A stretch of 64,000 nucleotides of DNA from Ilumatobacteraceae bacterium (GCA_022843125.1 JALHOG010000001.1:6088-70087); one strand, 5' to 3'; positions 1 to 44,502 are shown, counted from the stretch's first letter. Numbers and translations: made by a program. The notes: generated from the sequence alone by a model not told the origin.

Positions 1-245
1 CGGGGATACCGCAGCTCGCCGAGCGCTCGGAGCGTGCTCTCGATCACCGCCGCTTCATCGTGCGCGGGCACGAGCATGAGGAAGCGGTGCACAGGCGCCC
101 CGTCGATCGCCGGGCGTGAGCGTCGCGCCCCGGCGAGCGTGAGCAGGCCGAGGTACGCCGCGATCGCCGCGTTGACGGCGGTCAGGACGGCGAGCGGCGC
201 GTCGGCTGCGGTGCCGGCGGCTCTGATGCCGCGTCGAGGGTGCAT
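1..245 (-). CDS. glycosyltransferase family 2, N-terminal fragment (gene runs off the window start)
   Basis: Absent from the ORF track because it has no stop in the window. My reverse translation from ATG at 245 gives MHPRRGIRAAGTAADAPLAVLTAVNAAIAAYLGLLTLAGARRSRPAIDGAPVHRFLMLVPAHDEAAVIESTLRALGELRYP. That is a TM helix followed by the VPAxxE...L..L..YP opening typical of GT2 enzymes. The start lies 2 nt after the upstream stop (248-250). Confidence 0.6.
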   Translation of the reverse strand, partial: MHPRRGIRAAGTAADAPLAVLTAVNAAIAAYLGLLTLAGARRSRPAIDGAPVHRFLMLVPAHDEAAVIESTLRALGELRYP

Positions 246-247
246 CG

Positions 248-838
248 TCAGACCGTCGACTCGGGAAGGATCCGGGCGGGTACGCCAACGGCAGTGCAAC
301 GATCTGGGACGTCACGCAACACGACAGCGTTCGCGCCGACTCTGGCGTCGCAGCCGACCGTGATCCCGCCCAGGATGCGGGCGCCGACCCCGATGAACGC
401 ACGGTCGCCCACCACGGGCCACACCCCATCCTCGAGCGTGCCGAATGTGACCTGCCCGACGACGGTGACGTCCTCGCCGATCGAGGCGGCATGGAGGACG
501 CAGCCCACCGGGTGGGCGATGTACAGCCCGCCGCCCACCGGGGTCGACGGCGCGAGTTCGAGACCGTACAGCCGCAGGAGGCGTCGTTGGACGTAGCCGC
601 CGACACCACGGACACCGGCAGCGCGACACCATTGAGCGAACCTGAACCACGCCATCGCACGCAACGGTGGGTACCGGATGAGCAGCCGCAGGGCGATCGG
701 CCACGTCACCTCGGAGGGGTCGGCGACCTGCTGCGGTCTGACCCAGCGCGCGGCATCGCGCGTGAAGTTGACGATGTGTTCGCCGCCCGCCGGACGCAGC
801 ATGGTGCGTAGTCTGCCACCGGGGGCGAACATCTCCAT
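248..838 (-). CDS. hexapeptide-repeat (LbH) O-acetyltransferase, serine-acetyltransferase/WcaB-like
   Basis: C-terminal part of ORF 248..1324. It contains IGEDVTVVGQVTFG...VVGDRAFIGVGARILGGITVGCDARVGANAVVLRDVPDRCTAVGVPARIL. I trimmed it to ATG 838 (MEMFAPGG) because the upstream part overlaps the acyltransferase gene ending at 877. Confidence 0.8.
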   Translation of the reverse strand: MEMFAPGGRLRTMLRPAGGEHIVNFTRDAARWVRPQQVADPSEVTWPIALRLLIRYPPLRAMAWFRFAQWCRAAGVRGVGGYVQRRLLRLYGLELAPSTPVGGGLYIAHPVGCVLHAASIGEDVTVVGQVTFGTLEDGVWPVVGDRAFIGVGARILGGITVGCDARVGANAVVLRDVPDRCTAVGVPARILPESTV

Positions 839-876
839 GTGAATTCGGTTGGGCGGCTCGGCGCGCCGCCGGCCCG

Positions 877-2079
877 TCACCCAGCGCCGCCCCACCGGCC
901 GACGATGGCGTTCCGGGCCGGTACCTCGAGCCAGCGGTGAGCCAACGCCGAGGCCCCGAGCGTGACGACCACCGCGCAGATGGCCTCCAGCTGCGTCGGA
1001 GGTGCGGGGCCGTCGTTGACGACCAGCCACGCAGCCCACTGGAGGATGTAGAACGCGTAGCTGACCTCGCCGAGCCGGACCATCGGACGTGTCGCGAGGA
1101 TCCGACTCAGCGGGCTCGAGCCCCACGCGACTGCAGCGATGATGGCCACCACCACGGGGAGGTACACCGCGAAGAGCCGCAGATCGACCAGCGCTCGGGC
1201 GTCGGTGGCTGCGGGGTAGCAGGCCGCCGCAGGGCACGGTGACGTGAACTGGATGGCGACGGCTCCGACGCAGGCGCCGATGAGGAGCCCCGAACGCACG
1301 CGCTGTGACTCCAGCCATCGCCAACCGCCGCGTGCGTCACGCCGGTACTCGGTGCGGAACGCAGCGCCGAGGAGACAGCCGATCACGAACTCGCCGAGCC
1401 GCAACGCCGGGATGTTGGCGAGCCGGCTGACGATCAGTCGGGCGCCGTCGACGTCGCCGTTCCGGCCGAGCAGGTAGGCGCCGGCAGCGATCGAGATCGT
1501 GACGTACGCGGTGATCTGGATGACAGCGACCGACGCGATCGCACGCCCGATCCAGCGTCGCCGCATGATCGGCCACACCACCATCGGGACGAGCAACGGA
1601 AACGTCACGTAGAAGAACGCCTCGACCGAGATGCTCCATGCGGGCCCGTTCCAGAGGTTGAACACCTGGAACGGGAACCACGCCTGCACCAGTAGGACGT
1701 TGGCGACGAACCCCACGACCACCGCTGCGGCGCCGTGCTCGGTGAAGGGATCGCGAAGTGCGAGAACGAGCGGTGCCACGAGTGCGAGAGCGAGGAGATG
1801 GAGCGGTGTGATCCGGGCGAACCTCGCGATGGCGAAGCGGCGCATGGAGCCGTCGCTCGTTCGTCGCGCGAGACGTTCTCCATACGTGTGCACGAGCACG
1901 AACCCGCTCAGCACGAAGAACAGGGAGACGCCCGCGCCGCCCTGGGCAGCGGCGGTCGGGTCGAGCCCCGGGATCATCTCCGGGAAGTGTTCGATCGCGA
2001 CCACTACGGCGGCGACGAACCGCAGCCCGGTGAGCGAGTCGATCCGCTCGCTGCCGGTTGTCGTGACGGGTGCAGTCAT
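877..2079 (-). CDS. membrane acyltransferase family 3 (OafA-like O-acyltransferase)
   Basis: ORF 877..2169. The protein is multi-TM and opens with LTGLRFVAAVVVAIEHF, typical of acyltransferase_3. Start taken at ATG 2079 (MTAPVTTTGSERIDSLTGLRF). The upstream GTG/ATG at 2169 is also possible. Confidence 0.8.
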   Translation of the reverse strand: MTAPVTTTGSERIDSLTGLRFVAAVVVAIEHFPEMIPGLDPTAAAQGGAGVSLFFVLSGFVLVHTYGERLARRTSDGSMRRFAIARFARITPLHLLALALVAPLVLALRDPFTEHGAAAVVVGFVANVLLVQAWFPFQVFNLWNGPAWSISVEAFFYVTFPLLVPMVVWPIMRRRWIGRAIASVAVIQITAYVTISIAAGAYLLGRNGDVDGARLIVSRLANIPALRLGEFVIGCLLGAAFRTEYRRDARGGWRWLESQRVRSGLLIGACVGAVAIQFTSPCPAAACYPAATDARALVDLRLFAVYLPVVVAIIAAVAWGSSPLSRILATRPMVRLGEVSYAFYILQWAAWLVVNDGPAPPTQLEAICAVVVTLGASALAHRWLEVPARNAIVGRWGGAG

Positions 2080-2250
2080 GCCGAGCGGCCTCCGCCGCAG
2101 GGACGGTCGCGCTCGGGCATCTCGATCGAACGTGGCCGGGGCCCCACAGCGGACCTCCTCTCGGGTCAACGAAGGCTAGGGCACGGCTGACACACGATCG
2201 CATTCGAATCTGCAGGGTCGCGGCGGCGTCACTCGGGTAGCGTCTGGCCG

Positions 2251-3618
2251 GTGACGGAGCGGCGGAAACTCCTTCCCTTGTCGGCCTGGTGCTTGGTTGC
2301 CTGCGTCCTCGTCGCGGCTGCGTGCTCGGCAACCGAGGACTCTGCGGTGGCGCCCACCACGGTGGCGAGCCCGACCGAGGTGGAGCCCACGGTCCAGCCG
2401 GAGCCGTCGATCGTGTCCACGATTGCGCCGCCCCCGCGAGTGGCGTCGCCAGCGACGCTCGACGGTGAGCGGTTCGTCGAGACGTTCGACGGGGCCCCCG
2501 CGTCGCCCACTCCGTGGCGCCCGAGCAACTGGGACGTCACGGTGCACTCCCGGGACGTGTCCACCTTCGAGCAGCTCGAGCCGATGGCTGCGGAGCACGG
2601 TCCGGACTGCGCCGGGCCACCGGCGACCCACGAGAGCTCGACGTACGAGAGCGCCGTCTATCAGTGTCGGGATCACGTGATGACGGCCATCAACGCCGGT
2701 GGATACGCGATGATCTACCTCACCCCTGATCGTATGGTCGACTTCTCCGAGGGTGAGGCGGTCATCCAGGTCGACGTCTCCACGTTGCGGAGCTCCGATC
2801 GGGACTGGTGGGACGTCTGGATCACGCCGTACGACGACAGCCTGCAGCTGCCGCTCGATCTCGGATCCGACGTCGACGCCACCGGACCACCCAGGGTCGG
2901 GATCCAGGTCACCCTCGCCACCGAGAACCAGATGAAGGCCGTCATCTGGGACGACTTCGAGGCGGTGCAGTTCCCCGACTGGCCCAACGACGCGGTCACC
3001 GGTGACACGTTCACCGGCTACGAGACGTTCCTGACGCCCGACGCGGCACGCAGAGACACCTTCGAGATCGCCATCTCCCGGAACCGTCTCCGCGTCGGCA
3101 TGCCGCAGTACGACTTCTGGTGGGTCGACACCGAGATCCCCGAGCTCGACTGGACGCAGGGCGTGGTCCAACTCGGGCACCACTCCTACAATCCCACGAA
3201 GGACTGCAACGTCGACAACACGCCGGTGCCGCCGGTCGCCGAGTGTCTGCCGAACACCTGGCACTGGGACAACCTGGTGATCGACCCGTCAGTCGGTTTC
3301 TCGATCGTCCAGGTGACGCCGACGCAGGCGGATGCTTCGTCGTCGGTCGTGGAGCTGGAACAGGCGGCGCTCCCGGACTCGCACCTGCGCTTCACCGGGA
3401 TCGGCAATCAGCTCCAGGTCCGCTTCGACGGAGCAGCATGGGAGGACGCACAAGTCCAGGCAACCCAGCGCGAGACCAAGGAAGAGCACTTCGCGAGCTA
3501 CTGGCACCCGATCCCGACCGGGACGACCCGGGTCGAGTTCCGTGGTGAAGACTGGTGGGGAGGGCCGTGGCTCGTCCGGGGTGTTTCGGCGTGGAGCCCG
3601 GCGGTCGTCGCGAACTGA
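2251..3618 (+). CDS. predicted lipoprotein of unknown function
   Basis: ORF track. The N-terminus MTERRKLLPLSAWCLVACVLVAAACSATED has a basic n-region, a hydrophobic core and lipobox-like LVAC/AAAC. The mature part is Trp/Asp-rich (DWWDVWITP, NTWHWDN) and I recognise no family. Confidence 0.6.
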   Translation: MTERRKLLPLSAWCLVACVLVAAACSATEDSAVAPTTVASPTEVEPTVQPEPSIVSTIAPPPRVASPATLDGERFVETFDGAPASPTPWRPSNWDVTVHSRDVSTFEQLEPMAAEHGPDCAGPPATHESSTYESAVYQCRDHVMTAINAGGYAMIYLTPDRMVDFSEGEAVIQVDVSTLRSSDRDWWDVWITPYDDSLQLPLDLGSDVDATGPPRVGIQVTLATENQMKAVIWDDFEAVQFPDWPNDAVTGDTFTGYETFLTPDAARRDTFEIAISRNRLRVGMPQYDFWWVDTEIPELDWTQGVVQLGHHSYNPTKDCNVDNTPVPPVAECLPNTWHWDNLVIDPSVGFSIVQVTPTQADASSSVVELEQAALPDSHLRFTGIGNQLQVRFDGAAWEDAQVQATQRETKEEHFASYWHPIPTGTTRVEFRGEDWWGGPWLVRGVSAWSPAVVAN

Positions 3619-3790
3619 CTGCGGTGAGCCGAGCGGCTCGCCGAGCCACGGCGCGCAACGGAAGGTCACCGATCGTGGGGGAGCGCTACAGTCGGCCGGA
3701 TGGCGGCGGGAACGTGTGCGCGACGCGAGCGCGTCGCGATCGTCCTCGTGCGCCGGACGCTGCGGATCGGATGCGCGCTGGTGATGCTCT

Positions 3791-5290
3791 GTGAGCGATG
3801 ACCTGATCGGCGACGACCCGCCCGCAGCCGTGGCCCCCGACCGATCGTCGGTACGGCGCAACCTCGCGACCTTGATGACGTCGCAAGTCGTCACGTGGAC
3901 CCTCGCGACGGCGAGTGCCTACATCGTCCCGAGGTTCCTCGGACCTGCGGTGCTCGGTGAACTGCGCCTCGCGACGTCGCTGTGGTTGCTCGCCGCCACC
4001 GTCGCAGCCGTCGGCACCACTCAGTACCTCCAGATCGAGATCGCCCAGAACTCCCAGCGCGGGCTCGAGCTGGTGGGGCCGACGCTCGTGCTCCGCACCC
4101 TCGTCCTGCTCGGCGGCGCCGGCGTCATCGGGCTCTACGTGGGCTTGACGGACGGCTCGGGTCGCTTCTTCCTGATCGTCGGGCTGGCCGGGGCGGCGGC
4201 GACCGTGATGCTGTGGGCCGACGCACTCGGCGCGGCATTCATGGGCCTGGAACGGATGTCGGTGCCGGCGCTGGCGAACGGGCTCAACAAGGGGATCTAC
4301 TTCGTCGGCATCGTGATCCTGCTCGGTGTCGGAGCGGGCGTGTGGGGCGTGCTCGGTGTCACCATCGCGGCGCCGCTGATCGTGCTCGTCTACCTCATGG
4401 TGCAGTTCGGTCGACGGGCGCCACTGTCATTCGCCGGCTGGCCCGCCGAATCGCGACGGATCTTCGGGGCGAGTCGTACATTCATGGCCGCGACAGTGGC
4501 GTTGGTCGCGTACCAGCAGATCGACATGATCGTCATCTCATGGGTCGCCGATGAGGAGGACCTCGGCTGGTACGGCGCGGCTGACGTGTTGTTCGGCTCG
4601 CTGCTGTTCCCGGCAACGGTGCTGATGGGAGCGATCTTCCCGACACTCGGCCGCCTGCACAAGAGCGATCCGGCCGAGCTGCGCCGTCTCGTGGAGCGGG
4701 CGTTCTCGTTGCTCGTGCTGGCGGCAGTGCCGATCGGTCTCGGCACCATGGTCATCGCTCCCCGCTTCGCGCCGCTCCTCTACGGCGATGACTTCGCCGA
4801 GACCGGACAGGTGCTCGAAGTACTCGGACCGGTGGCGATCCTGACGTTCGGCACGATCCTGTTCGGCACCGTCGCCCTCACCACCGAGCGCGGGTCGTTG
4901 TGGGTCGCGGTGATGTTCGGCGCGGCAGCGCTCACCATCCCGCTCGACCTGCTCCTCGTGCCCTGGGCTGACGACCGCTACGGCAACGGCGCTGTCGGGG
5001 GTGCGCTCGCATACGTCGTCACCGAGGCGATCCAGTTCGGGATCGGGATCGTGGTCGTGACTCCCTTTCTCCTGAACCGCGCCCTGCTGTGGAGAGTCGC
5101 TCGGATCGCCATCGCCGGTGGCGCCATGTTGGCGGTCGGGCTGCTGCTGCGGTCCTCCCCCCAACTCGTCACCATCGCCGCATGCACGGGGGTGTACGCA
5201 GTCGGCATCCTGGCTCTCCGTGTGCTCTCCGAGGACGAGCGTCAGATGATCCGTGGCCTGCTCGCCAAGGTCGGGGTCGGCTCCGCGTGA
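3791..5290 (+). CDS. polysaccharide/oligosaccharide flippase (Wzx/MOP superfamily)
   Basis: ORF track, 499 aa. It is highly hydrophobic with about 12-14 predicted TM segments. Its size and layout fit the polysaccharide biosynthesis protein family, and it sits in a glycan locus. Confidence 0.75.
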   Translation: MSDDLIGDDPPAAVAPDRSSVRRNLATLMTSQVVTWTLATASAYIVPRFLGPAVLGELRLATSLWLLAATVAAVGTTQYLQIEIAQNSQRGLELVGPTLVLRTLVLLGGAGVIGLYVGLTDGSGRFFLIVGLAGAAATVMLWADALGAAFMGLERMSVPALANGLNKGIYFVGIVILLGVGAGVWGVLGVTIAAPLIVLVYLMVQFGRRAPLSFAGWPAESRRIFGASRTFMAATVALVAYQQIDMIVISWVADEEDLGWYGAADVLFGSLLFPATVLMGAIFPTLGRLHKSDPAELRRLVERAFSLLVLAAVPIGLGTMVIAPRFAPLLYGDDFAETGQVLEVLGPVAILTFGTILFGTVALTTERGSLWVAVMFGAAALTIPLDLLLVPWADDRYGNGAVGGALAYVVTEAIQFGIGIVVVTPFLLNRALLWRVARIAIAGGAMLAVGLLLRSSPQLVTIAACTGVYAVGILALRVLSEDERQMIRGLLAKVGVGSA

Positions 5291-5360
5291 GTGTGACGCC
5301 GGGGCGATGCCTCGCCCATGCGGCAGGCACTCCGCCCCCGCATCGGCGGAGGACGAATAC

Positions 5361-6569
5361 ATGAACACGGGTTCCGCAGATCGACTACCATCGGGGCCGA
5401 TGAGGCCGGCACGATCCAACGGGCGGGATGACCGGGTCCGGCTGTTGCTGATGACCAACTCGGTCGCCGTCGGCGGGATGGAGGAGCACGTTCGCCTGAT
5501 CGCTCAGGAGCTCGATCGCAGCCGCTTCGAGGTACATGCAGTGCTGCCCGACTGGTCGGCCACGAACGACTGGGCTCCGGCGCTCGGGGCCGCCGCCGAC
5601 ACGCTGACCTTCCTCACGCCCGATCGGCGGCACGGTGCCTCGGCGCAGGTGCGGGAGCTGTGGCGGCTCGTACGGTTCGCACGCGCGAACCGGTTCGACG
5701 TGGCGCACGTGCACGGCACGTCGTATCACGGCCTGTCACTCACGATCCTCGCCCTCCGCCTCGCCGGGGTCCGCCGCATCTGTCTGACCGAGCACCTCGC
5801 TCCCGAGGAACCCCAGTCGCGCCGACTCCGCCTCATGAGGGCGGGCCTCTCCCGCATGCTGTCGGTCCTGGTCGCCGTGTCCGAGAACAACCGCGACGCT
5901 CGCGTCGCCAACCTCGGCATGCCGGCCTGCCCGATCGAGGTCGTCAACAACGGCATCGACGTGTCGCGGTTCGACAGTGCCGACGACCCTGCGTCGGCGG
6001 CGGCTCTTCGCGAGGAGATCGGCATCGACCCGGGGGCGCTCGTCGTCGGCACCGCCATCAGGCTGGAGGCCGACAAGGGTGTCGACGACCTGGTGCGGGC
6101 GTTCGCCCTCGTCCGCGAGCGGCACGGCGACGCCGAGCTCCTGATCGTCGGGGACGGCTCGCAGCGGCTCGCGCTCGAGGCGTTGGCCGAGCAGTGCGGC
6201 GTTGCGGACCACACGCGCTTCGTCGGGTTCCAGCCTGCACCCCAGCCGTACATCCGCCTCATGGACGTGTTCGTGCTGCCGGTGCCGTTCGGTTCGGCCT
6301 CGATCGGCTTGCTCGAGGCCATGGCGATGTCGCGACCGTGCGTGATCACCTTCGGCGGCCGCAAGGAAGCGGTCGTCCACGACGAGTGCGGGTATTGCGC
6401 TGCGCCGAGAGACCCCGCCTCGCTCGCCCATCACATCGGACTCCTGCTCGATGACGATGAACGGCGGATGGAGTTCGGGCGCAAATCCCGTGAGCGGGTC
6501 GAACGCGAGTATTCTGCAGTCCGAGTGGCTCGCCATCTGGAGGTGATCTACGGCGGATCGATGGGTTAG
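5361..6569 (+). CDS. glycosyltransferase family 4 (GT-B)
   Basis: ORF 5253..6569. Contains RVRLLLMTNSVAVGGMEEHV plus the C-terminal GT4 signature (FVLPVPFGSASIGLLEAMAMSRPCV). Start chosen at ATG 5361, preceded by GGAGGA. ATG 5400 is an alternative. Confidence 0.85.
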   Translation: MNTGSADRLPSGPMRPARSNGRDDRVRLLLMTNSVAVGGMEEHVRLIAQELDRSRFEVHAVLPDWSATNDWAPALGAAADTLTFLTPDRRHGASAQVRELWRLVRFARANRFDVAHVHGTSYHGLSLTILALRLAGVRRICLTEHLAPEEPQSRRLRLMRAGLSRMLSVLVAVSENNRDARVANLGMPACPIEVVNNGIDVSRFDSADDPASAAALREEIGIDPGALVVGTAIRLEADKGVDDLVRAFALVRERHGDAELLIVGDGSQRLALEALAEQCGVADHTRFVGFQPAPQPYIRLMDVFVLPVPFGSASIGLLEAMAMSRPCVITFGGRKEAVVHDECGYCAAPRDPASLAHHIGLLLDDDERRMEFGRKSRERVEREYSAVRVARHLEVIYGGSMG

Positions 6570-6572
6570 GTA

Positions 6573-12444: not shown

Positions 12445-12464
12445 GGGTGTCTCCTGTTTCTGCG

Positions 12465-15165: not shown

Positions 15166-15346
15166 CGTCCGATCATCCGTTCACTTCCGCCGTTCACGGG
15201 CCCATACCCGCTGTGTCAACATTGTGCACGCTACTGGCCGTCGGACGGGGCGCGATTTCAAGATTCACCGACCGTTTACCGTGGAGCGCGCGAGCCCGGC
15301 CACTGATCGTCCGATCGGCGCCGCCCCGACCGTCAGCGCGGTCGGA

Positions 15347-29693: not shown

Positions 29694-29852
29694 ACACCGG
29701 GAGAACAGAGAGAAATCCGGTAGCGGGGCAGCCGCGCGTTTGATAACCATGTGTGATGACCGGCGGGTCAGCGGTTCAATGCTCGTGCTACGTGGTGCGA
29801 GCAGACCTCATTCGACGGGCATCATCGGTGAGTGGCGGGAAGGAAGCGAGTC

Positions 29853-33906: not shown

Positions 33907-33915
33907 TCACGAATC

Positions 33916-36900: not shown

Positions 36901-39900
36901 TTCGACCGTGCGGACGAGTTCGAGGAACGTCGGTGCTCCAGATGTGTCGGTCCGCAGGACCAGCGTGTTCACGAGCGACGCGACGAGGTTCTCGCTCTCG
37001 AGCCAGTTGCGATTGGCGATCGCCGTCCCTGTGGTGACATCGCTCGCTCCGGACAGGCGTGCAACGACGAGTTGGAACGCAGCGAGCATCACCATGAACG
37101 GCGACACCTGGTGCGTTCGGCAGAAGGCCTGGAGTGCGTCGAACAGCCCCTCGGGGAACGGGGCCGTGATCGTCTCGCCCTGGGATGTGACGACGAGCGG
37201 TCGCGGTCGGTCCGATGGGAGCTCGGGTGCGCGTGCGTCGCGAAGCCGGTTCACCCAGTAGTCGATGTGCTCGTCGACGATGCGCCCGTCGACCAGCGCA
37301 CGATGCCACCGGGCGTACTCCCCGGCGTGTCCGGGATCTTGCAGGTCGGCGCCGTGTCCGAGCCGGAGCGCGTTGTACGACGCAGCCACCTCGCTGGTGA
37401 GCAACCCGAACGCCCACTCGTCCCCGATGATGTGATGCATCGACACGAGCACCCCGTGGTCGTCGTCGGCGAGCCGGTAGAGCTTCAGACGGATCAGGGG
37501 CAGCTGGTCGAGTCGGAACGGTTCGGTCGCGTCGGCGGTGATCGTGGCGAGGGCCGCATCCCATCCGAGCGGGGACTGACCTGCGCCGAGGTCGACGATC
37601 TCGAGCCCGACATCGGGTGCGTCGTCGAGGACCCGTTGAACGGGTGCGCCGTCGACGACCGGGAAGATCGACCTCAGGCCGGCATGGCGCTGCACGACGG
37701 TCGCGACGGCATCCTGGAGATGGTCCAACTCGAGCGGCCCTCGGAGGCGGCCGGCGAACGTGATGTGGTAGGCGAGCCCGTCGGGTTCCAGCTCGTGCAG
37801 GAACCACATGCGCTCCTGCGAGTAGCTGAGCGGGAAGTCGCCGGCATGGTTCGTTCCCTGGTCGTCGGCGCTCGCCGGGCGTACCGGGACGACGGCGTGC
37901 TCGTCGATGGCGGCGGCCAACTCGGCGACGGTCGGGTGCCTGAACACCGCGCTGACCGGGACCTCGACGCCGAGCTCTCGCCGGAGACGCGACGCGATGC
38001 GGGTGGCGAGGAGGGAGTGGCCGCCGAGGTGGAAGAAGTTGTCGTGGCGTCCGATGGTGGGGGTGTCGAGGACGGTGGCCCAGATGGTGGCGATGGTGGT
38101 TTCGGTGCCGGGGTGGGGTGGTTGGTGGGTGGTGTCGTGGTGGGGGGTGTGGTGGGTGGTGGGTGGTGGGAGTTGGTTGCGGTCGATCTTGTTGGTGGTG
38201 GTGAGTGGGAAGGTGTCGAGGGGGACCACGATGGTGGGGATCATGTGGTCGGGGAGGGTGCGTTGGCACCAGGTTCGGATGTCGTGTGGTGTGGGTGGTG
38301 TGGTGTGGGGTGTGGTGGTGATGTAGGCGACGAGGCGGGTGTCGTCGGGGGTGGGTTGGTGGGTGGTGACGGCGCTGGCGGTGATGTTGGGGTGTTGGTC
38401 GAGGGTGGCTTCGATTTCGCCGAGTTCGATGCGTTGGCCGCGGAGTTTGAGTTGGTGGTCGGTGCGGCCGTGGAAGTGGTAGGTGGGGGGTTGGTCGGGG
38501 TTGGTGTGTCGGTGGGCGAGGTCGCCGGTGCGGTACATGCGGTCGCCGGGGTGGAAGGGGTCGGGGAGGAAGCGTTCGGTGGTGAGGTCGGGGCGGTTGT
38601 GGTAGCCGCGGGCGACGCCGTTGCCGGCGATGTAGAGCTCGCCGATGGTGCCGTCGGGGACGGGTTGTTGGTGGTCGTCGAGGACGTAGACGCGTGTGCC
38701 GGGAATCGGCGACCCCAACGCCACCACCGACGCGCCGGGCTCGATCAGCTGTGCTGTGGCGAACACCGTCGATTCGGTCGGGCCGTAGGTGTTCCACACA
38801 GCGCCGGCGCGAGCGTTGAGGGCCGCAGCGAGATCCAGCGTCAGAGCCTCGCCGCCGCTCACTGCGATGAAGTCGCCGCGTCCCTCCCATCCCCACTCGA
38901 GCAGCATCCGCCACGCCGTCGGGGTCCCATCCATGTATGTCGCACCCACCGTGTCGAGCAGTCGGCTCAACGCTGCCGCGTCGGTTCGGGTGGAGTCGTC
39001 GGCGATGACCAGCTCGGCGCCGACCAGGAGCGCCATGAAGATGTCGGTGACGGAGGTGTCGAACGAGATGGCCGACTGACAGACCACCACGTCGTCGGGC
39101 CCCACACCGGTCAGATCTGCGAGAGCCAGTGCCCGCTGAGCAACCGCCCACTGCTCGATCTCGACGCCCTTCGGGGTCCCGGTCGAGCCTGACGTATACA
39201 TGACGTACGCGAGACTGTCCGGTCCGACCGCCGGGAGTTCTGCTGTGGAGTCGGGGAGATGCCGGGGGTCGATGCGCGTGATGTCTGCGAGCGGCCCAGG
39301 AACGGCCGCATCGGAGATGAGCACCGTCGCACCTGCATCCTGCACCATGAACGCCATCCGATCGACCGGGAGGTTCTGGTCGATCGGGACGTACGGGACC
39401 CCCGCCTTCAGGCAGGCGACGAGCGCTGTCACGAGGCCCACCGAACGCTCGATGATCACGCCGGCCGATGAACCATCGGTGGTGTGGAGGGCGATCGCCC
39501 GGGCCATCGCTTCGGAGTGGTGCTCGAGTTCGGCGTACGTGAGGTGTGTCTCACCGCAACGAACGGCGGTGCGATCGGGCCATCGCTGGCACCGGTCACG
39601 GAGCAGTGCGGCCAAGCTCGTCGTGTCGGTCGGTGCCGATGCGATGGCAGCCCACTCGGCTGCGAGGGCGGCGCGCTCGTGGGTGCCGAGCAGCTGCAAC
39701 TGCGCGACGTCGCGATCGACGTCGACCCGGCCGGTCATGATCACTCGCCAGACCCGATCGAGCAACACCCTGACCTCGTGGGCGTCGAAGTACTCGCTCC
39801 CGAACTCGGCGCCGAAGTAGAGGCGGTCCGAACCGTCCGAGAGCAGCAGTGTCAACGGGAGAGCCGCAGGCCGGTGCGTATGGCTGACCGAGTTGATCTC

Positions 39901-41091
39901 GAGGCCACCGAGTGTCGCCACGATGCCGGGAACGCTGAGTGACGTCCCGGCGATGGTGTCGGGGTCGACCAGTCGGGTCGACTTCTGCCAGATGAATCCG
40001 ATCGTGGCCGAGGGCATCGGGAGCCCTTCCGACCTCAGCACCTCGACGACCTGTTGGAACGGGATGGCGCGGTGCGCCTTGGCCTCCGCGATCTCGTCGG
40101 CGACTGATCGGACGACTGTCCGGAACGAACTGCGCGGCTGGGCCCGCTGCAGCAACAGACTCGGTTCGGCGAAGCATCCGATCGTGCGTGCCGTGCGATG
40201 GGTGCGCCCGGCCCAGGTCGTCACCACGGCGATCTCATCGAGCTGTTGGGTCCGGAGGAGCACGACGTGCAGCGCGGCGAGCACGATCGCTTCGCGCGGC
40301 ACGCCGAGTTCACGTGCGAGCGACACGAGCGCGTCGTTCTCTTCGGACGAGACATCGCGGTGGACGATCTCGCCACGGTGTGGATCGGCGCCCGGTTGCG
40401 GGGTGGGGAGGCGGGGGACCGTCGCAGCACCACCCGCTGCGAACGTTCGGCGCCAATGCGCGAGGCACGCGTCCGCTCGCGGGTGCTCGTCGAGGGCCGA
40501 TTGATCAGCGACATGATCGGCCCATCGCCGACCGGACACCCGACCGGACACCCGAGGGGTCTCGGGCTGACCGCCTCGCAACCCGCCGTAGTGCGAGTTG
40601 ATCTCGGTGAAGAGCACCGCGAGCGACCACAGATCGACGACCAGGTGGTGCGCGGCGAGAACCACGACGTGGTCGTCGTCGCTGACGCGCAGGACCGCGA
40701 TCCGACACAGCGGTCCGCGTTCCAGGTCGTACGCGCGCGCGGCGAACTCCGACACGTACGACGACACACGTTGCTCGTCCCAGTCCGGAGCGTCGACCAC
40801 CGTGTGCTCCATCTCGGCCGGGGCGTCGAGCCGGAGCCGAGGTTCGCCGTCGACGTCGATCAGCCGAGCCCCCAGGATCTCATGGCGCGCCACGACGTCG
40901 AGCGCACCGGCCACGTAGGCGTCGGTGTCGAGCTGCTCGACGATTCGGAACGTGGCGATCAGCCTGTTGACGATCGAGTCGCCGACGATCTGCTCGCGGA
41001 TCCACATCGATCGTTGAACGGGTGTGAGCGGCAGCTGATCGGCTGTCGGTGCCACATGACCGTGACTGGTCTGGGTATGCGGCGCCGTCAT
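33916..41091 (-). CDS. non-ribosomal peptide synthetase, C-A-PCP-C-A-PCP-TE
   Basis: ORF 33916..41193. Start taken at ATG 41091 (MTAPHTQTS). C1 has HHLVVD (40633-40650). A1 has A3 YTSGSTGTPKG (about 39166-39201). The PCP1 Ser codon is 38014-38016. C2 has HHIIGD (37420-37437). A2 has A3 YTSGSTGRPKG (about 35983-36021). The PCP2 Ser codon is 34816-34818. The TE spans about 34680-33919 and carries GGHCAGG. Confidence 0.95.
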   Translation of the reverse strand: MTAPHTQTSHGHVAPTADQLPLTPVQRSMWIREQIVGDSIVNRLIATFRIVEQLDTDAYVAGALDVVARHEILGARLIDVDGEPRLRLDAPAEMEHTVVDAPDWDEQRVSSYVSEFAARAYDLERGPLCRIAVLRVSDDDHVVVLAAHHLVVDLWSLAVLFTEINSHYGGLRGGQPETPRVSGRVSGRRWADHVADQSALDEHPRADACLAHWRRTFAAGGAATVPRLPTPQPGADPHRGEIVHRDVSSEENDALVSLARELGVPREAIVLAALHVVLLRTQQLDEIAVVTTWAGRTHRTARTIGCFAEPSLLLQRAQPRSSFRTVVRSVADEIAEAKAHRAIPFQQVVEVLRSEGLPMPSATIGFIWQKSTRLVDPDTIAGTSLSVPGIVATLGGLEINSVSHTHRPAALPLTLLLSDGSDRLYFGAEFGSEYFDAHEVRVLLDRVWRVIMTGRVDVDRDVAQLQLLGTHERAALAAEWAAIASAPTDTTSLAALLRDRCQRWPDRTAVRCGETHLTYAELEHHSEAMARAIALHTTDGSSAGVIIERSVGLVTALVACLKAGVPYVPIDQNLPVDRMAFMVQDAGATVLISDAAVPGPLADITRIDPRHLPDSTAELPAVGPDSLAYVMYTSGSTGTPKGVEIEQWAVAQRALALADLTGVGPDDVVVCQSAISFDTSVTDIFMALLVGAELVIADDSTRTDAAALSRLLDTVGATYMDGTPTAWRMLLEWGWEGRGDFIAVSGGEALTLDLAAALNARAGAVWNTYGPTESTVFATAQLIEPGASVVALGSPIPGTRVYVLDDHQQPVPDGTIGELYIAGNGVARGYHNRPDLTTERFLPDPFHPGDRMYRTGDLAHRHTNPDQPPTYHFHGRTDHQLKLRGQRIELGEIEATLDQHPNITASAVTTHQPTPDDTRLVAYITTTPHTTPPTPHDIRTWCQRTLPDHMIPTIVVPLDTFPLTTTNKIDRNQLPPPTTHHTPHHDTTHQPPHPGTETTIATIWATVLDTPTIGRHDNFFHLGGHSLLATRIASRLRRELGVEVPVSAVFRHPTVAELAAAIDEHAVVPVRPASADDQGTNHAGDFPLSYSQERMWFLHELEPDGLAYHITFAGRLRGPLELDHLQDAVATVVQRHAGLRSIFPVVDGAPVQRVLDDAPDVGLEIVDLGAGQSPLGWDAALATITADATEPFRLDQLPLIRLKLYRLADDDHGVLVSMHHIIGDEWAFGLLTSEVAASYNALRLGHGADLQDPGHAGEYARWHRALVDGRIVDEHIDYWVNRLRDARAPELPSDRPRPLVVTSQGETITAPFPEGLFDALQAFCRTHQVSPFMVMLAAFQLVVARLSGASDVTTGTAIANRNWLESENLVASLVNTLVLRTDTSGAPTFLELVRTVEAGSLEAFDHQDAPFAQVVTRLGTAGLRERPALYRTFFNVLNAPFGLPQLDGVDVEFVHVDRGATQLDLSLAISTAAQLAVVEYDTDLFDRARIEETLERFWRILEAGIETPEISTVVLPLCSGAETAALRQEWAAAAAEPNSDMPDPDSALRQRAIADPEQIAVRCGGDSVTYRTLDDWADRVATFLIDRGAGRETRVGIRLERSPEMIAAVVGVLRAGAAFVPLDPDLPVDRLRFITEDSECALMLVDRTATTRSDQDSGPGTTVTVDISDVLSQPVGSPVAPRGGPHDSAYIMYTSGSTGRPKGVLVERRQLLHFLVGAQARLELTHDDVVVALTRLSFDPSLMEILLPLAVGASITVPTRDETTDPRALIDLVRSNGATLVQATPTRWRMLLDGGLPPDSSLTAVCGGEVMTPELATQLAGVAGRVFNVYGPTETTVWSTFERLPDGFSAALASVVALGSPIPGTRVYVLDDHQQPVPDGTIGELYIAGNGVARGYHNRPDLTTERFLPDPFHPGDRMYRTGDLAHRHTNPDQPPTYHFHGRTDHQLKLRGQRIELGEIEATLDQHPNITASAVTTHQPTPDDTRLVAYITTTPHTTPPTPHDIRTWCQRTLPDHMIPTIVVPLDTFPLTTTNKIDRNQLPPPTTHHTPHHDTTHQPPHPGTETTIATIWATVLDTPTIGRHDNFFHLGGHSLLAIRLISEVERRLGVEVPLSSIFQTPTLMEFATAVESGTASKWTSLVPIQPAGDERPFFYVAPYLITSLSFANLGQVLGRRPLYVLQPQGIDTGDSAHATVEAMAEHYLAEIRDVQPAGPYLIGGHCAGGTVAAEMVFQLERRGEAADLLVLVDAEAPGAPLSARGRVHPVRRAWQYFRDGRLRQAISWQLHLVYERVVQTRVGSPTEVRIAQVRRQHATAHAVYQPPSLCTDVALILSEEWNAPDRRSAVETGWFGITTGRITTRAVCGTHAGLVEMANSSALGAAIESELAACVAP
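34432..34434 (-). other. TE active-site nucleophile codon is TGC (Cys) in the GxCxG motif GGHCAGG
   Basis: Plus strand 34424-34450 reads ccaccggcgcagtggccgccgatgagg. In gene sense this is CTC ATC GGC GGC CAC TGC GCC GGT GGT, or LIGGHCAGG, in frame with the stop at 33916. Confidence 0.9.
34808..35536 (-). repeat. 729-bp direct repeat, copy A (module 2: A-domain A6-A10 region, linker, and start of PCP up to GGHSLLA)
   Basis: Base-by-base comparison by eye found it identical to 38006..38734, at an offset of 3198 bp (a multiple of 3). The encoded 243 aa are identical in both modules. Confidence 0.9.
38006..38734 (-). repeat. 729-bp direct repeat, copy B (module 1: A-domain A6-A10 region, linker, and start of PCP)
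   Basis: Identical to 34808..35536. Divergence begins immediately outside both ends: agtgcgg versus ccgggct on one side, atc versus gtg on the other. Confidence 0.9.
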
Positions 41092-41820
41092 GCGTCCCCG
41101 TCGGGGCGGGGCACAGCGATGGCCGACCGACCGATTCGGCGTCCCCCCGGCACGCCATGCGTCAGCCGACCGCACGAAGCCACGCGAGACCACACGTGCA
41201 CCAGTTGTCTCCTCCGATTGTTGCGGGGGTGAAGGCGTGCGCCGCCCAAGCGTGTGGTCATGTCAATGGTAACCAACCCGCAGGGCTGGATTTGGCATTC
41301 TTGACGAAATCTGCAAACGGCGGCGGGCTGCCCGCGGGTACATCCGGCCCTTGCGGCGCTCTGCACCGCCGGTCGTCAACAGCCGATTCCCTGGATCTGA
41401 TCGGGTGCATCATCGAGCGCGTCTTCGAACAGACCGCACACCTCGCCGACGGCCCTCGACCACATCAGTGCTGCAACTCATCCCGCTCTTCCTGATCGCC
41501 GTGTGGAACCGAATCAACCTGCTCTACGTCGTCATCCGTGGTCGTGTTCGACGATAGTCGATCCTCTCCGAGTGCGGTCTCGAGATGCGGCGACCGGGGA
41601 GTGGGACGTGCACGGTGAATCGGCTCGGTGAACGTCGTCGTCGCTCAGGTCAATGACTCCACCGAGTGACATCTCGACAGGGCCGATGGCTCGGGCAGGT
41701 GCGCTCGACGGAGCCTCACCGGCTCGATCGCCGAAGACGTCGAGGTGAGCGGCAGCAGCCGGGTTCGTGTCGCATCGGAGGGTTACCCGGTTGCGGAGTC
41801 CGGCAGTCGGCGCGATCTGC

Positions 41821-42321
41821 TCAGGTGACGAACGGGACGTATCCCTGGACGTCGACGATGACGTGAGTGCTGCCCGTGCCGCCGCACACGACCTCGATCG
41901 AGTTCTCCTGGCCGACGGTCGTCAGGGCGAGGTTGGCGAGCGTCTGCCCGCCTGTCGTCCAGTTGACGTTGGACGTCCCCGGCGTGTCGAGCTCGCCCGA
42001 CGCGTCGCCGCCCCACACCGTGAGGAACCCGCCGCCGACGGTCTGGGTGATCGTGACGTTGACGAACACCGCGAGCGCGAACTCGGGATATGCGGCACCG
42101 ACGTTCACGGCCACCGAGTCGCCGGGTCGGAACGCGCGGCCGCCGAGCACGCTCGTGGTCTGGCGCGAGTCGAACACGCGGATCGGCGACAGCAGTGTGA
42201 CGAGCTGGCCGGCGATCGGTGTCGGCGTCGCTGCGAGGGCGGGGCGACCGGCGATCGGAGCAGCAACAGCGGCAGCACCTCCGACGGCGATCATCCGGCG
42301 GCGGGAGAAGAGTGCGGGCAT
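41821..42321 (-). CDS. Tat-signal secreted protein, unknown function
   Basis: ORF track. MPALFSRRRMIAVGGAAAVAAPIAGRPALA-AT has a twin-arginine motif and an AxA cleavage site. A strong RBS, GAGGAGG, lies upstream of ATG 42321. The mature domain has a beta-rich pattern (RVFDSR...FLTVWGG...SNVNW...VIVDVQGYV). Confidence 0.7.
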   Translation of the reverse strand: MPALFSRRRMIAVGGAAAVAAPIAGRPALAATPTPIAGQLVTLLSPIRVFDSRQTTSVLGGRAFRPGDSVAVNVGAAYPEFALAVFVNVTITQTVGGGFLTVWGGDASGELDTPGTSNVNWTTGGQTLANLALTTVGQENSIEVVCGGTGSTHVIVDVQGYVPFVT

Positions 42322-42413
42322 GACGAGACCTCCTCGGTTCGTCCTTCCATCATGCGCTCACGACCCTCCGGGCGCCAGCACGGGGCGTGTCAGGCGGCGA
42401 GGGCGGGTCTCGC

Positions 42414-43697
42414 TCAGCCCCAGGTGACCGGGAGACGGCTGGGGCCTCGGAAGCTGATGTTGGGGAACGGGACGGTGGCCCGGTCGTCAGCGAGGGCGAG
42501 GGTGGGAAGACGATCGAGGACGACCTCGAGCACGATCCGCGCCTCGAAGCGGGCGAACTTGGCACCGAGGCAGTAGTGGTTGCCCTTGCCGAACGAGATG
42601 TTCTTGACCGCATCGGGCCGGCTGATGTCGAATCCGTCGGGGTCGTCGAACGCATGTGGGTCCCGATTGGCCGCGGCCAGGTTGAGGAAGATCGGGGTGC
42701 CGGCGGGCAGGTCGACGCCGCCGAGCGTGGTGTCGCAGGTGGTGACCCGCCGCCAACCGATCTGCGGCGAGTTCCAGCGGATGACCTCCTCGAGCGCCTT
42801 GGGGACGAGCGTCGGATCGGCCACCAACGCCTGCCACGCATCGCGACGGGGCAGCAGGGACACCAGCGCGTTGCCGATGAGGAGCGTCACGGGCTCGTGC
42901 CCTGCGAACGACAGGCCGTAGAGGATCGACTCGACCTCTCGGTACGACAGGTCGTCCGGGTTCGCGAGGTGGTATCCGATCAGCTCGGACGCCAGATCGT
43001 CACCGGGCTCGGCGCGCTTCCCTGCAGCGAACTCACGGACGTACCGCCAGTACGCCAGCATGTTGGTGGTGATGTCGACCTGCTCGGTCGGGGTCGGCTG
43101 CCCCCAGGAGAAGGCCAACCGGTTGGCGCACCAGTCCTTCAGTTGCTGGTCGTCACGTTCGGGGAAGCCGATGAACCGGAACACGACCTCGCCCGGTAGC
43201 GGGTAAGCGAGCGATGCCACGAAATCGGCGGGTGGCCCCGCGGCGAGCATGGTGTCGACGAGCTCGTTGGCGCGCCGGCGGATGTACGGCTCGAGCGTCT
43301 GGATCCGCCGGTTCGAGAACAGCAGCTTCGTGTAGTTGCGGATGCGGCCGTGGTCGGGCTCCTGGCGGTTCGACATCACCGCGACCGGGTCGAAGTCGGG
43401 CGCGGCGAGCACAGCGGCAGCGTCGGCCGTGATCGGGAAGACCGGATCCTGGACGTTCGCCGACGAGTACACGTCGGGGTTCATGAACACCTCGGTCACC
43501 AGGTCCATCTGCGACACCATGACGAAGCCGAGCGACTCGGCGTAGACCACCGGCGCCGTCTCGCGGATCGCCGACGCGATCGGGTACGGGTCGGCGACGT
43601 ACTCCGCCGCGAGCGGGCTGAATCCGTGGTCGACCGGGCAGCCCGCGGGAATGGGCGGCGGCCCGCTACGGATCTGGTGGTACGCGGTCTCGGTCAT
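42414..43697 (-). CDS. cytochrome P450
   Basis: C-terminal 427 aa of ORF 42414..44321, starting at MTETAYHQ with RBS GAGGGGGA. The heme-binding loop is FGKGNHYCLGAKFA, the EVIRW region gives ExxR, and the I-helix reads GLSFAGHEPV. Confidence 0.9.
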   Translation of the reverse strand: MTETAYHQIRSGPPPIPAGCPVDHGFSPLAAEYVADPYPIASAIRETAPVVYAESLGFVMVSQMDLVTEVFMNPDVYSSANVQDPVFPITADAAAVLAAPDFDPVAVMSNRQEPDHGRIRNYTKLLFSNRRIQTLEPYIRRRANELVDTMLAAGPPADFVASLAYPLPGEVVFRFIGFPERDDQQLKDWCANRLAFSWGQPTPTEQVDITTNMLAYWRYVREFAAGKRAEPGDDLASELIGYHLANPDDLSYREVESILYGLSFAGHEPVTLLIGNALVSLLPRRDAWQALVADPTLVPKALEEVIRWNSPQIGWRRVTTCDTTLGGVDLPAGTPIFLNLAAANRDPHAFDDPDGFDISRPDAVKNISFGKGNHYCLGAKFARFEARIVLEVVLDRLPTLALADDRATVPFPNISFRGPSRLPVTWG

Positions 43698-43827
43698 CGG
43701 ATCCCCCTCGTTGCGCCGACACCCCAGATCGTGACAGCGATCACCGCAACAGGAAAGCCGGTTCTGTACATCCGGGCGATGAGGAGAACTCATCGACGCG
43801 CGCCTCCAGATCGCGGCGGGCGTTACC

Positions 43828-44502
43828 GTGCGACGTGTGTCCAGCCGCGAGCCCGCCGATGATGCCGTCGAGCCGGTGACCCGCGCGCTCGAGGCGCTCG
43901 GGCTGGCGATCGATCGGCCCCAGCTCCGGTTCGGGGCGTCGGCGATCGACGCCGGGGCGATCGCGGATCTCCGGCCGGAGGAGGCGGTCGCGGTCGCCGC
44001 CTCGGTCGCATCGCGTCGCGCCGAGTTCGCGAGTGGCCGAACGCTGCTGCGGCGGGTGCTCGGCGTCGACGTCGCCGTCCCGGTCGGCGCAGATCGGCGC
44101 CCCGTGCTGCCGCCGGACGTCACGGCCTCCGTGGCGCACGACGCCGACCTCGTGATCGTGGCGGTGGCCCGCGACCAACCCTTCACCGTCGGGATCGATG
44201 TCGAACGCGTCGGCGCCGTCGATCGCACGCTCGTTCCGATCGTGCTTCGACCCGACGAGCCAGGCATCGATCCGACCCTCGCGTTCTGCGCGAAGGAGGC
44301 GGTGTACAAGGCGTGGAGCATGGCCGGCGGCCGTTTCCTCGAGCACCACGACGTCCGTCTGTCGATCGTCGGCCCGACCGTTCACGCCGAGGTGCTCGCC
44401 GTCGGGCCCGACGACCCGACGGTGCGGATCGGCGGCGGTTGGGCGACCACCGCGGGGCGTTACGTGGTCCTGGTCGTCGCCGAACCGGTCGGCGCTCGAT
44501 GA
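43828..44502 (+). CDS. 4'-phosphopantetheinyl transferase (Sfp/EntD type)
   Basis: ORF track. Contains SVAHDADLVIVAVA, TVGIDVERV and FCAKEAVYKAW, the PPTase motifs. The GTG start at 43828 is tentative. Confidence 0.8.
   Translation: MRRVSSREPADDAVEPVTRALEALGLAIDRPQLRFGASAIDAGAIADLRPEEAVAVAASVASRRAEFASGRTLLRRVLGVDVAVPVGADRRPVLPPDVTASVAHDADLVIVAVARDQPFTVGIDVERVGAVDRTLVPIVLRPDEPGIDPTLAFCAKEAVYKAWSMAGGRFLEHHDVRLSIVGPTVHAEVLAVGPDDPTVRIGGGWATTAGRYVVLVVAEPVGAR

Follow-up and report, generated by a model that had tools for sequence, protein, structure and literature searches.

We analyzed a stretch of 64,000 nucleotides from an Ilumatobacteraceae bacterium (GCA_022843125.1 JALHOG010000001.1:6088-70087), here called the window. 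Coding frames were chosen by third-position GC (GC3) because the window is about 69% G+C, and the open reading frames (ORFs) were then scanned against Pfam and NCBIfam. Bases 1 to 44.5 kb contain a block of glycan-assembly genes, a nonribosomal peptide synthetase (NRPS) loading gene followed by a one-module polyketide synthase (PKS), the gene pair ugd-uxs, an operon around a second, dimodular NRPS (NRPS2) and a phosphopantetheinyl transferase (PPTase). The loading NRPS and the PKS together are called the cassette. Relative loci that we fetched are labelled L001, L030, L081-L087, L169, L170 and so on, and protein matches carry P-numbers. Taken as a whole, the region is probably a composite Wzx-type surface-glycopolymer locus with two carrier-protein (thiotemplate) modules built in. 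It belongs to a known family of orphan clusters, joined here by a second NRPS of a rare kind within an extensive glycan locus.

The loading NRPS gene (18835-23496, plus strand) encodes a formyltransferase domain, an adenylation (A) domain and a thiolation (T) domain (Pfam). Its A domain is split by a MupA/Atu3671-type luciferase-like monooxygenase (LLM; TIGR04020, 465 bits), inserted between A-domain motifs A4 and A5. Motif A4 (FDISVLEL) lies at residues 748-755, the LLM at 788-1133 and A5 (NMYGPTE) at 1222-1228. The formyltransferase triad N99/H101/D137 was invariant in 13 diverse homologs. This domain is nearer to ArnA, Met-tRNA formyltransferase (Fmt) and GDP-perosamine/sugar N-formyltransferases (E ~1e-11) than to the LgrA F domain (8e-5), a likeness that decides for neither an aminoacyl-carrier nor a sugar substrate. 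Ten specificity residues were read from each A domain by alignment to the GrsA Phe-A domain; the GrsA fragment used yields the known code DAWTIAAICK. The code of the loading module is DILQMGMIWK and is kept from Acidimicrobiia to Rhodobacteraceae and Gemmatimonadota. It resembles the glycine code DILQLGLIWK, and glycine is the predicted substrate of the loading A domain.

The stop codon of the NRPS overlaps the start of the PKS by 4 bp (ATGA, 23493-23496). The PKS (23493-29693, plus strand) is a single type I module with the Pfam order KS-AT-KR-DH-ACP-TE, in which KR stands before DH. Its active-site motifs TACSTS, HGTGT, GGTNAH and GHSLG are intact, and its thioesterase (TE) has the normal Ser (GGYSGGG). 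The specificity motif of the AT domain (residues ~722-728) is AAAHS, not the canonical HAFH or YASH. AAAHS, or the variants AAGHS, IAAHS and VAAHS, was found in most cassette PKSs (L081-L085 and L169 compared); the PKS of L030, which has no TE, carries HAFHS. From this motif, the extender unit may be other than plain malonyl-CoA.

Co-directional with the PKS are ugd (29832-31166, plus strand), a UDP-glucose 6-dehydrogenase gene with three Pfam domains and a TIGR03026 score of 435 bits, above cut-off, and uxs (31163-32140, plus strand), a UDP-glucuronate decarboxylase gene with E 8e-105 to human UXS1 structures. The spacer between the PKS and ugd has no terminator-like element and folds no better than shuffled sequence. 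We considered ugd as a WbpA-type UDP-GlcNAc dehydrogenase that would complete a WbpB/E/D pathway and rejected this, the best families being UDP-glucose dehydrogenases. An Arn-type 4-deoxy-4-formamidoarabinose (Ara4FN) pathway in the locus was not supported either; uxs is a true UXS, not an ArnA-type oxidase.

Converging on uxs is a minus-strand operon of a P450, a small protein with a twin-arginine (Tat) signal, NRPS2, a pyridoxal phosphate (PLP) enzyme and a small membrane protein. NRPS2 (33916-41091, minus strand; start uncertain, 41007 to 41193) has the Pfam architecture C-A-T-C-A-T-TE. Its condensation (C) domains carry HHLVVD and HHIIGD, and its TE has an active-site Cys (GGHCAGG). The A-domain codes are DTTDVGTVFK and DPMQVGVVWK, for which no substrates could be assigned. 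The first C domain was examined for the lipo-initiation starter type, and its sequence matches in the PDB are ordinary elongation C domains. The gene holds a 300-nt direct repeat (34802-35101 and 38000-38299) that is 99% identical and spaced by 3198 nt, which is one module. The repeat runs from the last part of the A domain across a Pro/Thr/His-rich linker into the first part of the T domain, with strongly positive GC skew there. It points to gene conversion between the modules in the recent past; a collapse in the assembly is also possible. Upstream of NRPS2, about 630 bp (41194-41823) show no coding signal or Rfam match; this is unusually long for so compact a locus and could be a regulatory region.

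The other genes of this operon are all on the minus strand. The cytochrome P450 (42414-~43650, start approximate; Pfam p450) has as its best NCBIfam model a cyclodipeptide-synthase-associated P450 subfamily, at 148 bits and below cut-off. The small secreted protein with the Tat-like signal (41821-42321) has no Pfam match. The PLP enzyme (32701-33906) belongs to the Cys/Met-metabolism gamma-lyase/synthase family (PF01053, E 1e-97; all NCBIfam models below cut-off). The last gene (32143-32697) encodes the small membrane protein, with three hydrophobic segments and no Pfam match. A homolog of it (40% identity) lies directly after the PKS in L001, an Ilumatobacter chromosome (21023-21370, minus strand), with a DegT aminotransferase gene next in line; it forms a further link between the cassette and NRPS2 systems. 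The block is closed by the Sfp-type 4'-phosphopantetheinyl transferase (43828-44502, plus strand; Pfam 4PPT_N/ACPS). This PPTase is 51% identical to that of L081. There it stands directly after the PKS; in the window it is found 14 kb further downstream, beyond the ugd-uxs pair and the NRPS2 operon.

The glycan block (251-18553) contains 17 complete genes. These are three GT4 and two GT2 glycosyltransferases (GTs), a Polysacc_synt flippase, two DegT aminotransferases, one epimerase/dehydratase of the short-chain dehydrogenase/reductase (SDR) type, a GFO/IDH/MocA oxidoreductase, three hexapeptide acyltransferases, an Acyl_transf_3 protein, a methyltransferase, a NodB-type deacetylase and one protein without a family. 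A Wzx flippase, several GTs and nucleotide-sugar modifying enzymes are thus present, as in Wzx/Wzy-dependent polysaccharide loci. In the ORFs that we scanned across the window we found no Wzy, no Wzz and no initiating phosphoglycosyl transferase; the locus runs to the left edge of the window.

At its left end, two minus-strand genes encode a hexapeptide-repeat acyltransferase (251-870, start approximate), for which the match is weak (Pfam Hexapep E 1.9e-5, below gathering score) and GC3 supports coding, and an OafA-type integral-membrane acyltransferase (877-2169; PF01757, E 3e-26) with at least seven hydrophobic segments. Three plus-strand genes follow the family-less one: a Wzx-type flippase (3791-5290; PF01943/PF13440) and two GT4 enzymes (5253-6569 and 6573-7694; Glycos_transf_1 E 1e-30 and 4e-29), the second of which is 43% identical to a GT4 downstream of the PKS in L084. 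All remaining genes are on the minus strand. A methyltransferase dependent on S-adenosylmethionine (7680-8650, start approximate; Pfam Methyltransf_23/12/11) and a GT2 (8651-~9560, start approximate; Glycos_transf_2 E 1e-25) precede the NodB-type polysaccharide deacetylase (9565-10329; PF01522 E 1e-24; NCBIfam PgdA/NodB families below cut-off), which is a possible de-N-acylase or deformylase. Amino-sugar functions are represented by a DegT/PseC/ArnB-type aminotransferase (10316-11497; PF01041 E 1.5e-112; NCBIfam PseC and ArnB ~293 bits, below cut-off), a nucleotide-sugar epimerase/dehydratase of the SDR type (11470-12450, start approximate; Epimerase E 5e-52; NCBIfam LegB/GalE-like, below cut-off), a second DegT-type aminotransferase (12465-13580, start approximate; PF01041 E 6e-124), the GFO/IDH/MocA oxidoreductase (13577-14605; Pfam), which is like nucleotide-sugar 3-dehydrogenases (best NCBIfam UDP-GlcNAc 3-dehydrogenase, below cut-off), and a NeuD/PglB/VioB-type hexapeptide N-acetyltransferase (14602-15165; Hexapep E 4e-23; TIGR03570 below cut-off). 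The block ends with an EpsD-like GT2 (15347-16324; Pfam; NCBIfam EpsD 312 bits, below its cut-off of 370), a hexapeptide O-acetyltransferase-like gene (16321-~16900, start approximate; Hexapep; NCBIfam LacA/Maa/WbbJ-like) and a GT4 (17405-18553; Pfam), the first gene of the minus-strand operon. Neither the GT2s of the window nor the GT2 associated with the cassette in other genomes was supported as ArnC-like, the ArnC match being negligible.

The family-less gene (2251-3618, plus strand) had no Pfam or NCBIfam match. Its product is a secreted lipoprotein with a lipobox-like N-terminus. The AlphaFold2 model has a pLDDT of 89, and Foldseek matched it to L-type lectins and GH16-like glucanases. 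There are 967 homologs, with about 50% identity between members from Acidimicrobiia and Chloroflexota, and in L082 and L084 paralogs of it are the immediate upstream neighbors of the loading NRPS. This protein was rejected as the missing acyl transferase; it is extracytoplasmic and has a ConA-like lectin/GH16-like fold.

An original prediction, made from this DNA alone, had described much of this layout. It counted nineteen glycan genes ending at 18553; the end is right, but the count is 17 complete genes plus one partial ORF at the window edge that matches no family. The divergent intergenic region of 281 bp (18554-18834) that it placed between this block and the loading NRPS was confirmed directly from the sequence, and its length is exact because the GT4 has its GTG start at 18553 (minus strand) and the NRPS its ATG at 18835 (plus strand). 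The distance of 159 bp that it gave from the PKS stop (29693) to ugd holds for the ATG at 29853 and becomes 138 bp for the GTG at 29832. The second NRPS, the P450 and the PPTase at the end of the block were all recovered by Pfam, and the formyltransferase, the LLM-split A domain and the KR-before-DH order are all real by Pfam and NCBIfam. The predicted Cys-TE exists in the dimodular NRPS and not in the PKS. Scans for the sigma-70 consensus and for intrinsic terminators, which are weak for high-GC Actinomycetota, were empty in the divergent spacer and in the PKS-ugd spacer, and Rfam at gathering threshold gave no match anywhere in the window.

The cassette is widespread. Its loading NRPS has more than 1400 homologs, and almost all of the 120 listed have the full Pfam architecture, a few being shortened or differently composed. 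Among the matches listed, the closest named homologs are from Ilumatobacter, Desertimonas and metagenome-assembled genomes of Acidimicrobiaceae (52-57% identity). The pair of loading NRPS and PKS was found at no fewer than 596 genomic places in a scan with one genome per species. We fetched 80 loci. They come from Acidimicrobiia, other Actinomycetota, many Rhodobacteraceae, Sphingomonadales, Burkholderiales and Rhizobiales, and also from Myxococcota, Planctomycetota, Gemmatimonadota, Acidobacteriota, Chloroflexota, Bacteroidota and cyanobacteria. Searches by tblastn with the window proteins placed a one-module PKS beside the NRPS in most of them, often with a PPTase. The closest relative, L081 (70% and 73% identity), has the order NRPS, PKS, PPTase without gaps, and the same gene order is seen in L082 and L169. 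In L030 and L021 the PKS has no TE and runs on into C-A-T modules, and therefore its chain can act as an N-acyl starter for peptide synthesis. A comparable hand-over of the PKS chain to the N-terminal C domain of NRPS2 in the window is conceivable by analogy. The C-A-T modules of these two loci were rejected as NRPS2 orthologs; their specificity codes differ and identity is only ~35%.

A cluster of this kind is known from Roseobacter genomes. It comprises four genes (NRPS, PKS, glycosyltransferase and PPTase), occurs in 28 of 57 genomes and has an uncharacterized product (PMC4337385). A survey of 2023 still gave the Roseobacter-type cluster no MIBiG match (PMC10584327). In the literature we found no characterized product of the Roseobacter cluster and no formyltransferase/LLM NRPS linked to a polysaccharide. 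The Roseobacter orphan cluster (Martens et al., cited in PMC4337385) shares with the window the formyltransferase-A(LLM)-T protein, the KS-AT-KR-DH-ACP-TE protein, the Sfp-type PPTase and the lack of an assigned product. Members from Rhodobacteraceae are 39-43% identical to the window NRPS. They differ from it in order (PKS, GT2, NRPS, against NRPS then PKS in the window) and in the GT2 subfamily between PKS and NRPS, which the window lacks, and the window PPTase is displaced by 14 kb.

Glycan genes are recurrent neighbors of the cassette. We searched 10 kb around it with 33 core glycan query proteins (GT2, GT4, WecG, Wzy, Wzz, Bac_transf, flippase, DegT, UDP-sugar dehydrogenase, deacetylase, Acyl_transf_3), accepting matches at E<1e-6 and query coverage of at least 40%, in loci whose flanks reach 8 kb or more beyond the anchor. 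Among 58 such cassette loci, 48 had at least one match, 41 at least two and 27 at least three, or 1.85 matches per 10 kb. All 28 Rhodobacterales loci had one or more, 27 had two or more and 20 had three or more (2.56 per 10 kb). The corresponding numbers for the other orders and phyla were 20/30, 14/30 and 7/30 (1.09 per 10 kb). Relatives of phosphoenolpyruvate carboxylase served as the control and gave 0/16 at every level, with 0 matches in 226 kb. Fisher's exact test against the control gave 7.9e-10 for the cassette loci as a whole and 5.8e-6 when only those outside Rhodobacterales were counted. These values are to be read with an imperfect control: it comes from another collection (metagenome contigs, mostly short), uses one housekeeping anchor and has 16 usable loci that are phylogenetically related.

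We annotated the contexts of seven relatives with Pfam (L030 and L082-L087), and glycan genes stand alongside in all seven, with a different arrangement in each. In L082, whose NRPS is 58% identical to that of the window, GT4, Acyl_transf_3, DegT and GT2 genes lie upstream. L083 (57%) has Wzy_C, WecG, two GT2 and one GT4-type gene upstream, and a hexapeptide transferase and a PIG-L gene downstream. In L084 (56%) the genes NRPS, PKS, DegT, GT4, GFO and epimerase follow each other on a single strand. L085 (Seohaeicola) reads WecG, then PKS, GT2, NRPS and PPTase, then GT4, flippase, Wzz and Bac_transf. The cassette of L086 (Gemmatimonadaceae) is accompanied by a UDP-sugar dehydrogenase, an Asn synthase, deacetylases and a GT2, and that of L030 (Acidimicrobiales) by a UDP-sugar dehydrogenase, a CapD-type dehydratase, a Wzc-like kinase and an epimerase. 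The GT2 subfamily of the L085 type travels with the cassette in 44 fetched loci. Because the glycan context differs from genome to genome, the association points to selection rather than inherited synteny.

Three proteins in and around the Rhodobacteraceae cassettes carry no annotation. Two paralogous proteins (320 and 837 aa; L085 15391-18863) stand directly after the PPTase in Rhodobacteraceae loci, and a membrane protein with about nine transmembrane segments (L085 799-2262) precedes the PKS. None has a Pfam or NCBIfam match, and all are candidates for missing transfer or polymerase functions. The marine Acidimicrobiaceae loci L169/L170 (57%) are a distinct genomic niche of the cassette, which together with the PPTase lies between two sulfatase genes, with hydrolases, a TetR regulator, an amidase and a 2-oxoglutarate/Fe oxygenase and with no glycan gene.

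NRPS2 is rare. Among 5.8 billion proteins, only P0122 (53%) and P0175 (41%) combined the full architecture with more than 40% identity; the remaining matches were generic NRPSs at about 33%. The context of P0122, L087, contains ugd, uxs, YchF and Bac_transf (minus strand), and then GT4, hexapeptide transferase, flippase, GT2 and the NRPS on one strand, the NRPS2 ortholog starting 175 bp after the GT2. Six window genes have orthologs among these neighbors: ugd (70%), uxs (74%), the EpsD-like GT2 (66%), the hexapeptide O-acetyltransferase-like gene (68%), the first GT4 of the minus-strand operon (56%, again the first gene of its operon) and the flippase (48%). Although rearranged, this set of genes has thus remained linked in both genomes. 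The A2 code of the L087 NRPS is identical to that of NRPS2, and A1 is the same at nine aligned positions. The P450, the PLP enzyme and the two small proteins of the window operon are lineage-specific additions, because they are absent from L087. No PKS was found within 10 kb of this ortholog. L081, the closest cassette relative, ends in a truncated gene that is a convergent 3' fragment (the T-TE end) of an NRPS2 ortholog (58% identity), and therefore it also has both systems side by side. The Cys-TE motif GGHCxG is kept in all four NRPS2 orthologs.

The predicted chemistry of the cassette draws on characterized enzymes. Loading modules of the type F-A(Gly)-PCP give formyl-glycyl-S-PCP to a PKS in oxazolomycin, phthoxazolin and conglobatin biosynthesis (PMC5764310). 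Like OzmO, PtxE and CongA from these pathways, the window protein combines a formylation domain, a glycine-type A domain and a carrier, and feeds a malonate-adding PKS. Unlike them, its A domain is interrupted by the LLM, and the next PKS module removes the beta-keto group needed for an oxazole. No OzmP/CongE/PtxD-type PP-loop or Asn-synthase-type domain was found among the ORFs scanned in 1-44.5 kb. An oxazole product is thus unlikely, because an OzmP/CongE-type cyclodehydratase is missing and the PKS reduces and dehydrates the beta-keto group. The second model is the monooxygenase of MtaG and MelG from myxothiazol and melithiazol biosynthesis, which introduces a hydroxyl group at the alpha-carbon of an N-acyl-glycyl thioester, to give a carbinolamide that can break down into an amide and a glyoxyl thioester (PMC10204066). 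These proteins also have a luciferase-like flavin monooxygenase between a4 and a5 of a glycine-specific A domain. MtaG/MelG are terminal C-A(MOx)-PCP-TE modules that release an amide, in contrast to the window protein, which is a loading module without a C domain whose chain is extended by the PKS and whose N-acyl group would be formyl.

From these precedents we infer the following steps. The loading NRPS would N-formylate tethered glycine, as suggested by its intact formyltransferase triad and by OzmO/PtxE/CongA. Its LLM, which sits in the same A4-A5 position as that of MtaG/MelG, probably hydroxylates the glycine alpha-carbon, and the starter is probably N-formyl-(alpha-hydroxy)glycyl or glyoxylyl. 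The PKS would add one C2 unit, reduce it and dehydrate it to give a four-carbon 4-formamido-enoyl, or glyoxylyl-derived, chain. The formyl group would also shield the gamma-amine from lactamization; such protective-group logic for gamma-amino thioesters is known from butirosin, vicenistatin and desertomycin (PMC4737276). NRPS2, the P450 and the PLP enzyme would make a tailored dipeptide, and the Sfp-type PPTase would prime the carriers.

Our preferred reading, which we put forward tentatively, is that the two thiotemplate modules supply short acyl or peptidyl substituents for the surface glycan; its basis is genomic. It is argued from the fact that both modules co-localize with glycan genes repeatedly and in rearranged order, including on the same strand in L084, L085 and L087. 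The adjacency of cassette and glycan genes is unlikely to be an accident, judged by this recurrence in many phyla together with L087 and L081. The host is probably a monoderm member of Acidimicrobiia, and its polymer would probably contain glucuronic acid or xylose and amino sugars. The acyl and peptidyl products may be passed to a sugar, nucleotide-linked or lipid-linked, before flippase-driven export. A likely acceptor would be an amine that the GFO oxidoreductase and the DegT aminotransferases generate. The thioesterases themselves, Acyl_transf_3 and the hexapeptide transferases are speculative candidates for the transfer. LpxA and LpxD are hexapeptide transferases that use acyl-carrier donors. 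By functional analogy, the proposed route is like Dlt D-alanylation of teichoic acids and the attachment of the 4-amino-2-hydroxybutyryl (AHBA) side chain of butirosin, in which an adenylation enzyme and a carrier build a small acyl group bound for a sugar. In the butirosin pathway (BtrI/J/K/O/V/H/G), an LLM hydroxylase acts on a carrier-bound, N-protected gamma-amino acyl chain. Unlike these systems, the window modules are full NRPS/PKS megasynthases with their own thioesterases.

Several observations weigh against this reading, apart from the imperfect control. No MBOAT/DltB, DltD or BtrH-like transferase appeared in Pfam/NCBIfam scans of the window, and the L085 GT2 subfamily has no ortholog there (tblastn, no match at E<1e-3). 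For NRPS2, the link to glycan genes comes from one independent genome, L087 being the sole well-flanked ortholog, and we know of no polysaccharide with a substituent of the predicted kind. The rest of the contrary evidence would fit two self-contained clusters that release small free products and merely share a variable region with a polysaccharide locus. Both megasynthases end in their own thioesterase, as expected for release of a free product, and the P450 resembles types that tailor free cyclodipeptides. The cassette occurs without glycan genes in 10 of the 30 well-flanked non-Rhodobacterales loci, and together with the PPTase it stands alone in L169/L170. The TE-less PKSs that run into C-A-T modules (L030, L021) look like an ordinary hybrid natural-product line, and no partner acting as a sugar acyltransferase has been identified. 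We nevertheless regard independent neighbors as somewhat unlikely. Core glycan genes are strongly enriched near the cassette in many phyla and in varied arrangements, in Rhodobacterales a GT2 lies between PKS and NRPS within a single operon, and the DegT-GT4-GFO-epimerase series is co-directional after the PKS in L084. The L087 ortholog of NRPS2 is likewise co-directional with GT genes and has six orthologous glycan neighbors. The original prediction that glycan genes and megasynthases form one system receives genuine though indirect support as to their belonging together, through the recurrent co-localization, L087 and L081. Its further step to one single product is unproven, because the cassette and NRPS2 occur apart in some loci; separate occurrence, which that prediction had named as evidence against itself, was found in part, in the cassette loci without glycan genes and in L087, where NRPS2 and glycan genes occur without the cassette.

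The same co-localization could also arise from a glycosylated small molecule. Here a formyl-glycine-derived acyl aglycone, possibly joined to the dipeptide through the C domain of NRPS2, would receive xylose, glucuronic acid or amino sugars from the GT2/GT4 enzymes and be exported as a discrete glycopeptide-polyketide, not as a polymer substituent. The N-terminal C domain of NRPS2 has an intact HHxxxD and no donor carrier in cis, and the ACP of the PKS is encoded 4 kb away. The adjacency of cassette and NRPS2 in L081, the passing of the chain to a C domain by the TE-less PKS variants and the empty window scans for Wzy, Wzz and an initiating transferase all fit such a product. We consider it improbable, since genes for classical polymer machinery (Wzy_C, Wzz, Bac_transf, WecG and a Wzc-like kinase) occur in related loci, the PKS ends in a TE itself and the L087 ortholog of NRPS2 lies without a nearby PKS. 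Natural-product glycosylation is usually carried out by GT1 enzymes, and these are absent from the window. The original prediction had suggested a relative of the mycobacterial glycopeptidolipids (GPLs), a fatty-acylated peptide core carrying sugars with methyl and acetyl groups and made in an enzymatically new way. The contiguity of NRPS, PKS, glycosyltransferase, methyltransferase (one) and acetyltransferase (several) genes does recall a GPL locus. Such a locus has a four-module NRPS (Mps1/Mps2) ending in a reductase (alaninol), FadD or fatty acyl-AMP ligase (FAAL) with Pks, PapA3-type transfer, GT1-type Gtf glycosyltransferases and MmpL/Gap export. In contrast, NRPS2 has two modules and a Cys-TE with no reductase domain. 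The only AMP-binding domains in the window are NRPS A domains with amino-acid codes, with no FAAL/FadD, and by its code the loading module selects glycine and not a lipid. With its single module the PKS adds C2, and no long-chain or iterative PKS is present. All GTs are GT2 or GT4, a Polysacc_synt flippase stands in place of MmpL/Gap, and the ORF scans across the window gave no MMPL or Gap transporter. The GPL analogy is not supported, and a GPL-like product is very improbable indeed.

The cassette is among the most widely distributed orphan thiotemplate systems, and no product has been assigned to it since its first description. The preferential setting of the cassette, and independently of NRPS2, in polysaccharide loci suggests that the product is to be sought on the glycan and not in organic extracts. 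If glycan decoration is the right reading, it would bring in a chemically new class of glycan substituents, account for the failure of genome mining to tie these clusters to metabolites, and bear on the cell-surface properties of abundant marine and soil bacteria. A still wider proposal, which we hold more loosely than the decoration of this one glycan, is that NRPS/PKS lines act as dedicated substituent suppliers for Wzx-dependent polysaccharides. This would be a widespread, uncharacterized mode of decoration in hundreds of genomes from many phyla, with the Roseobacter cluster as one instance and the present two-module locus as the most elaborate seen. If the reading is wrong, the region holds two orphan clusters beside an exopolysaccharide locus.

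Beyond the PPTase, regulatory genes are followed by housekeeping genes. A LysR regulator and a PAS-PAS-GAF-SpoIIE (PP2C) phosphatase occupy 44553-48196, immediately after the PPTase. The next gene (48215-49483), on the opposite strand, encodes a transporter of the major facilitator superfamily. These three proteins may regulate the locus or export its product.

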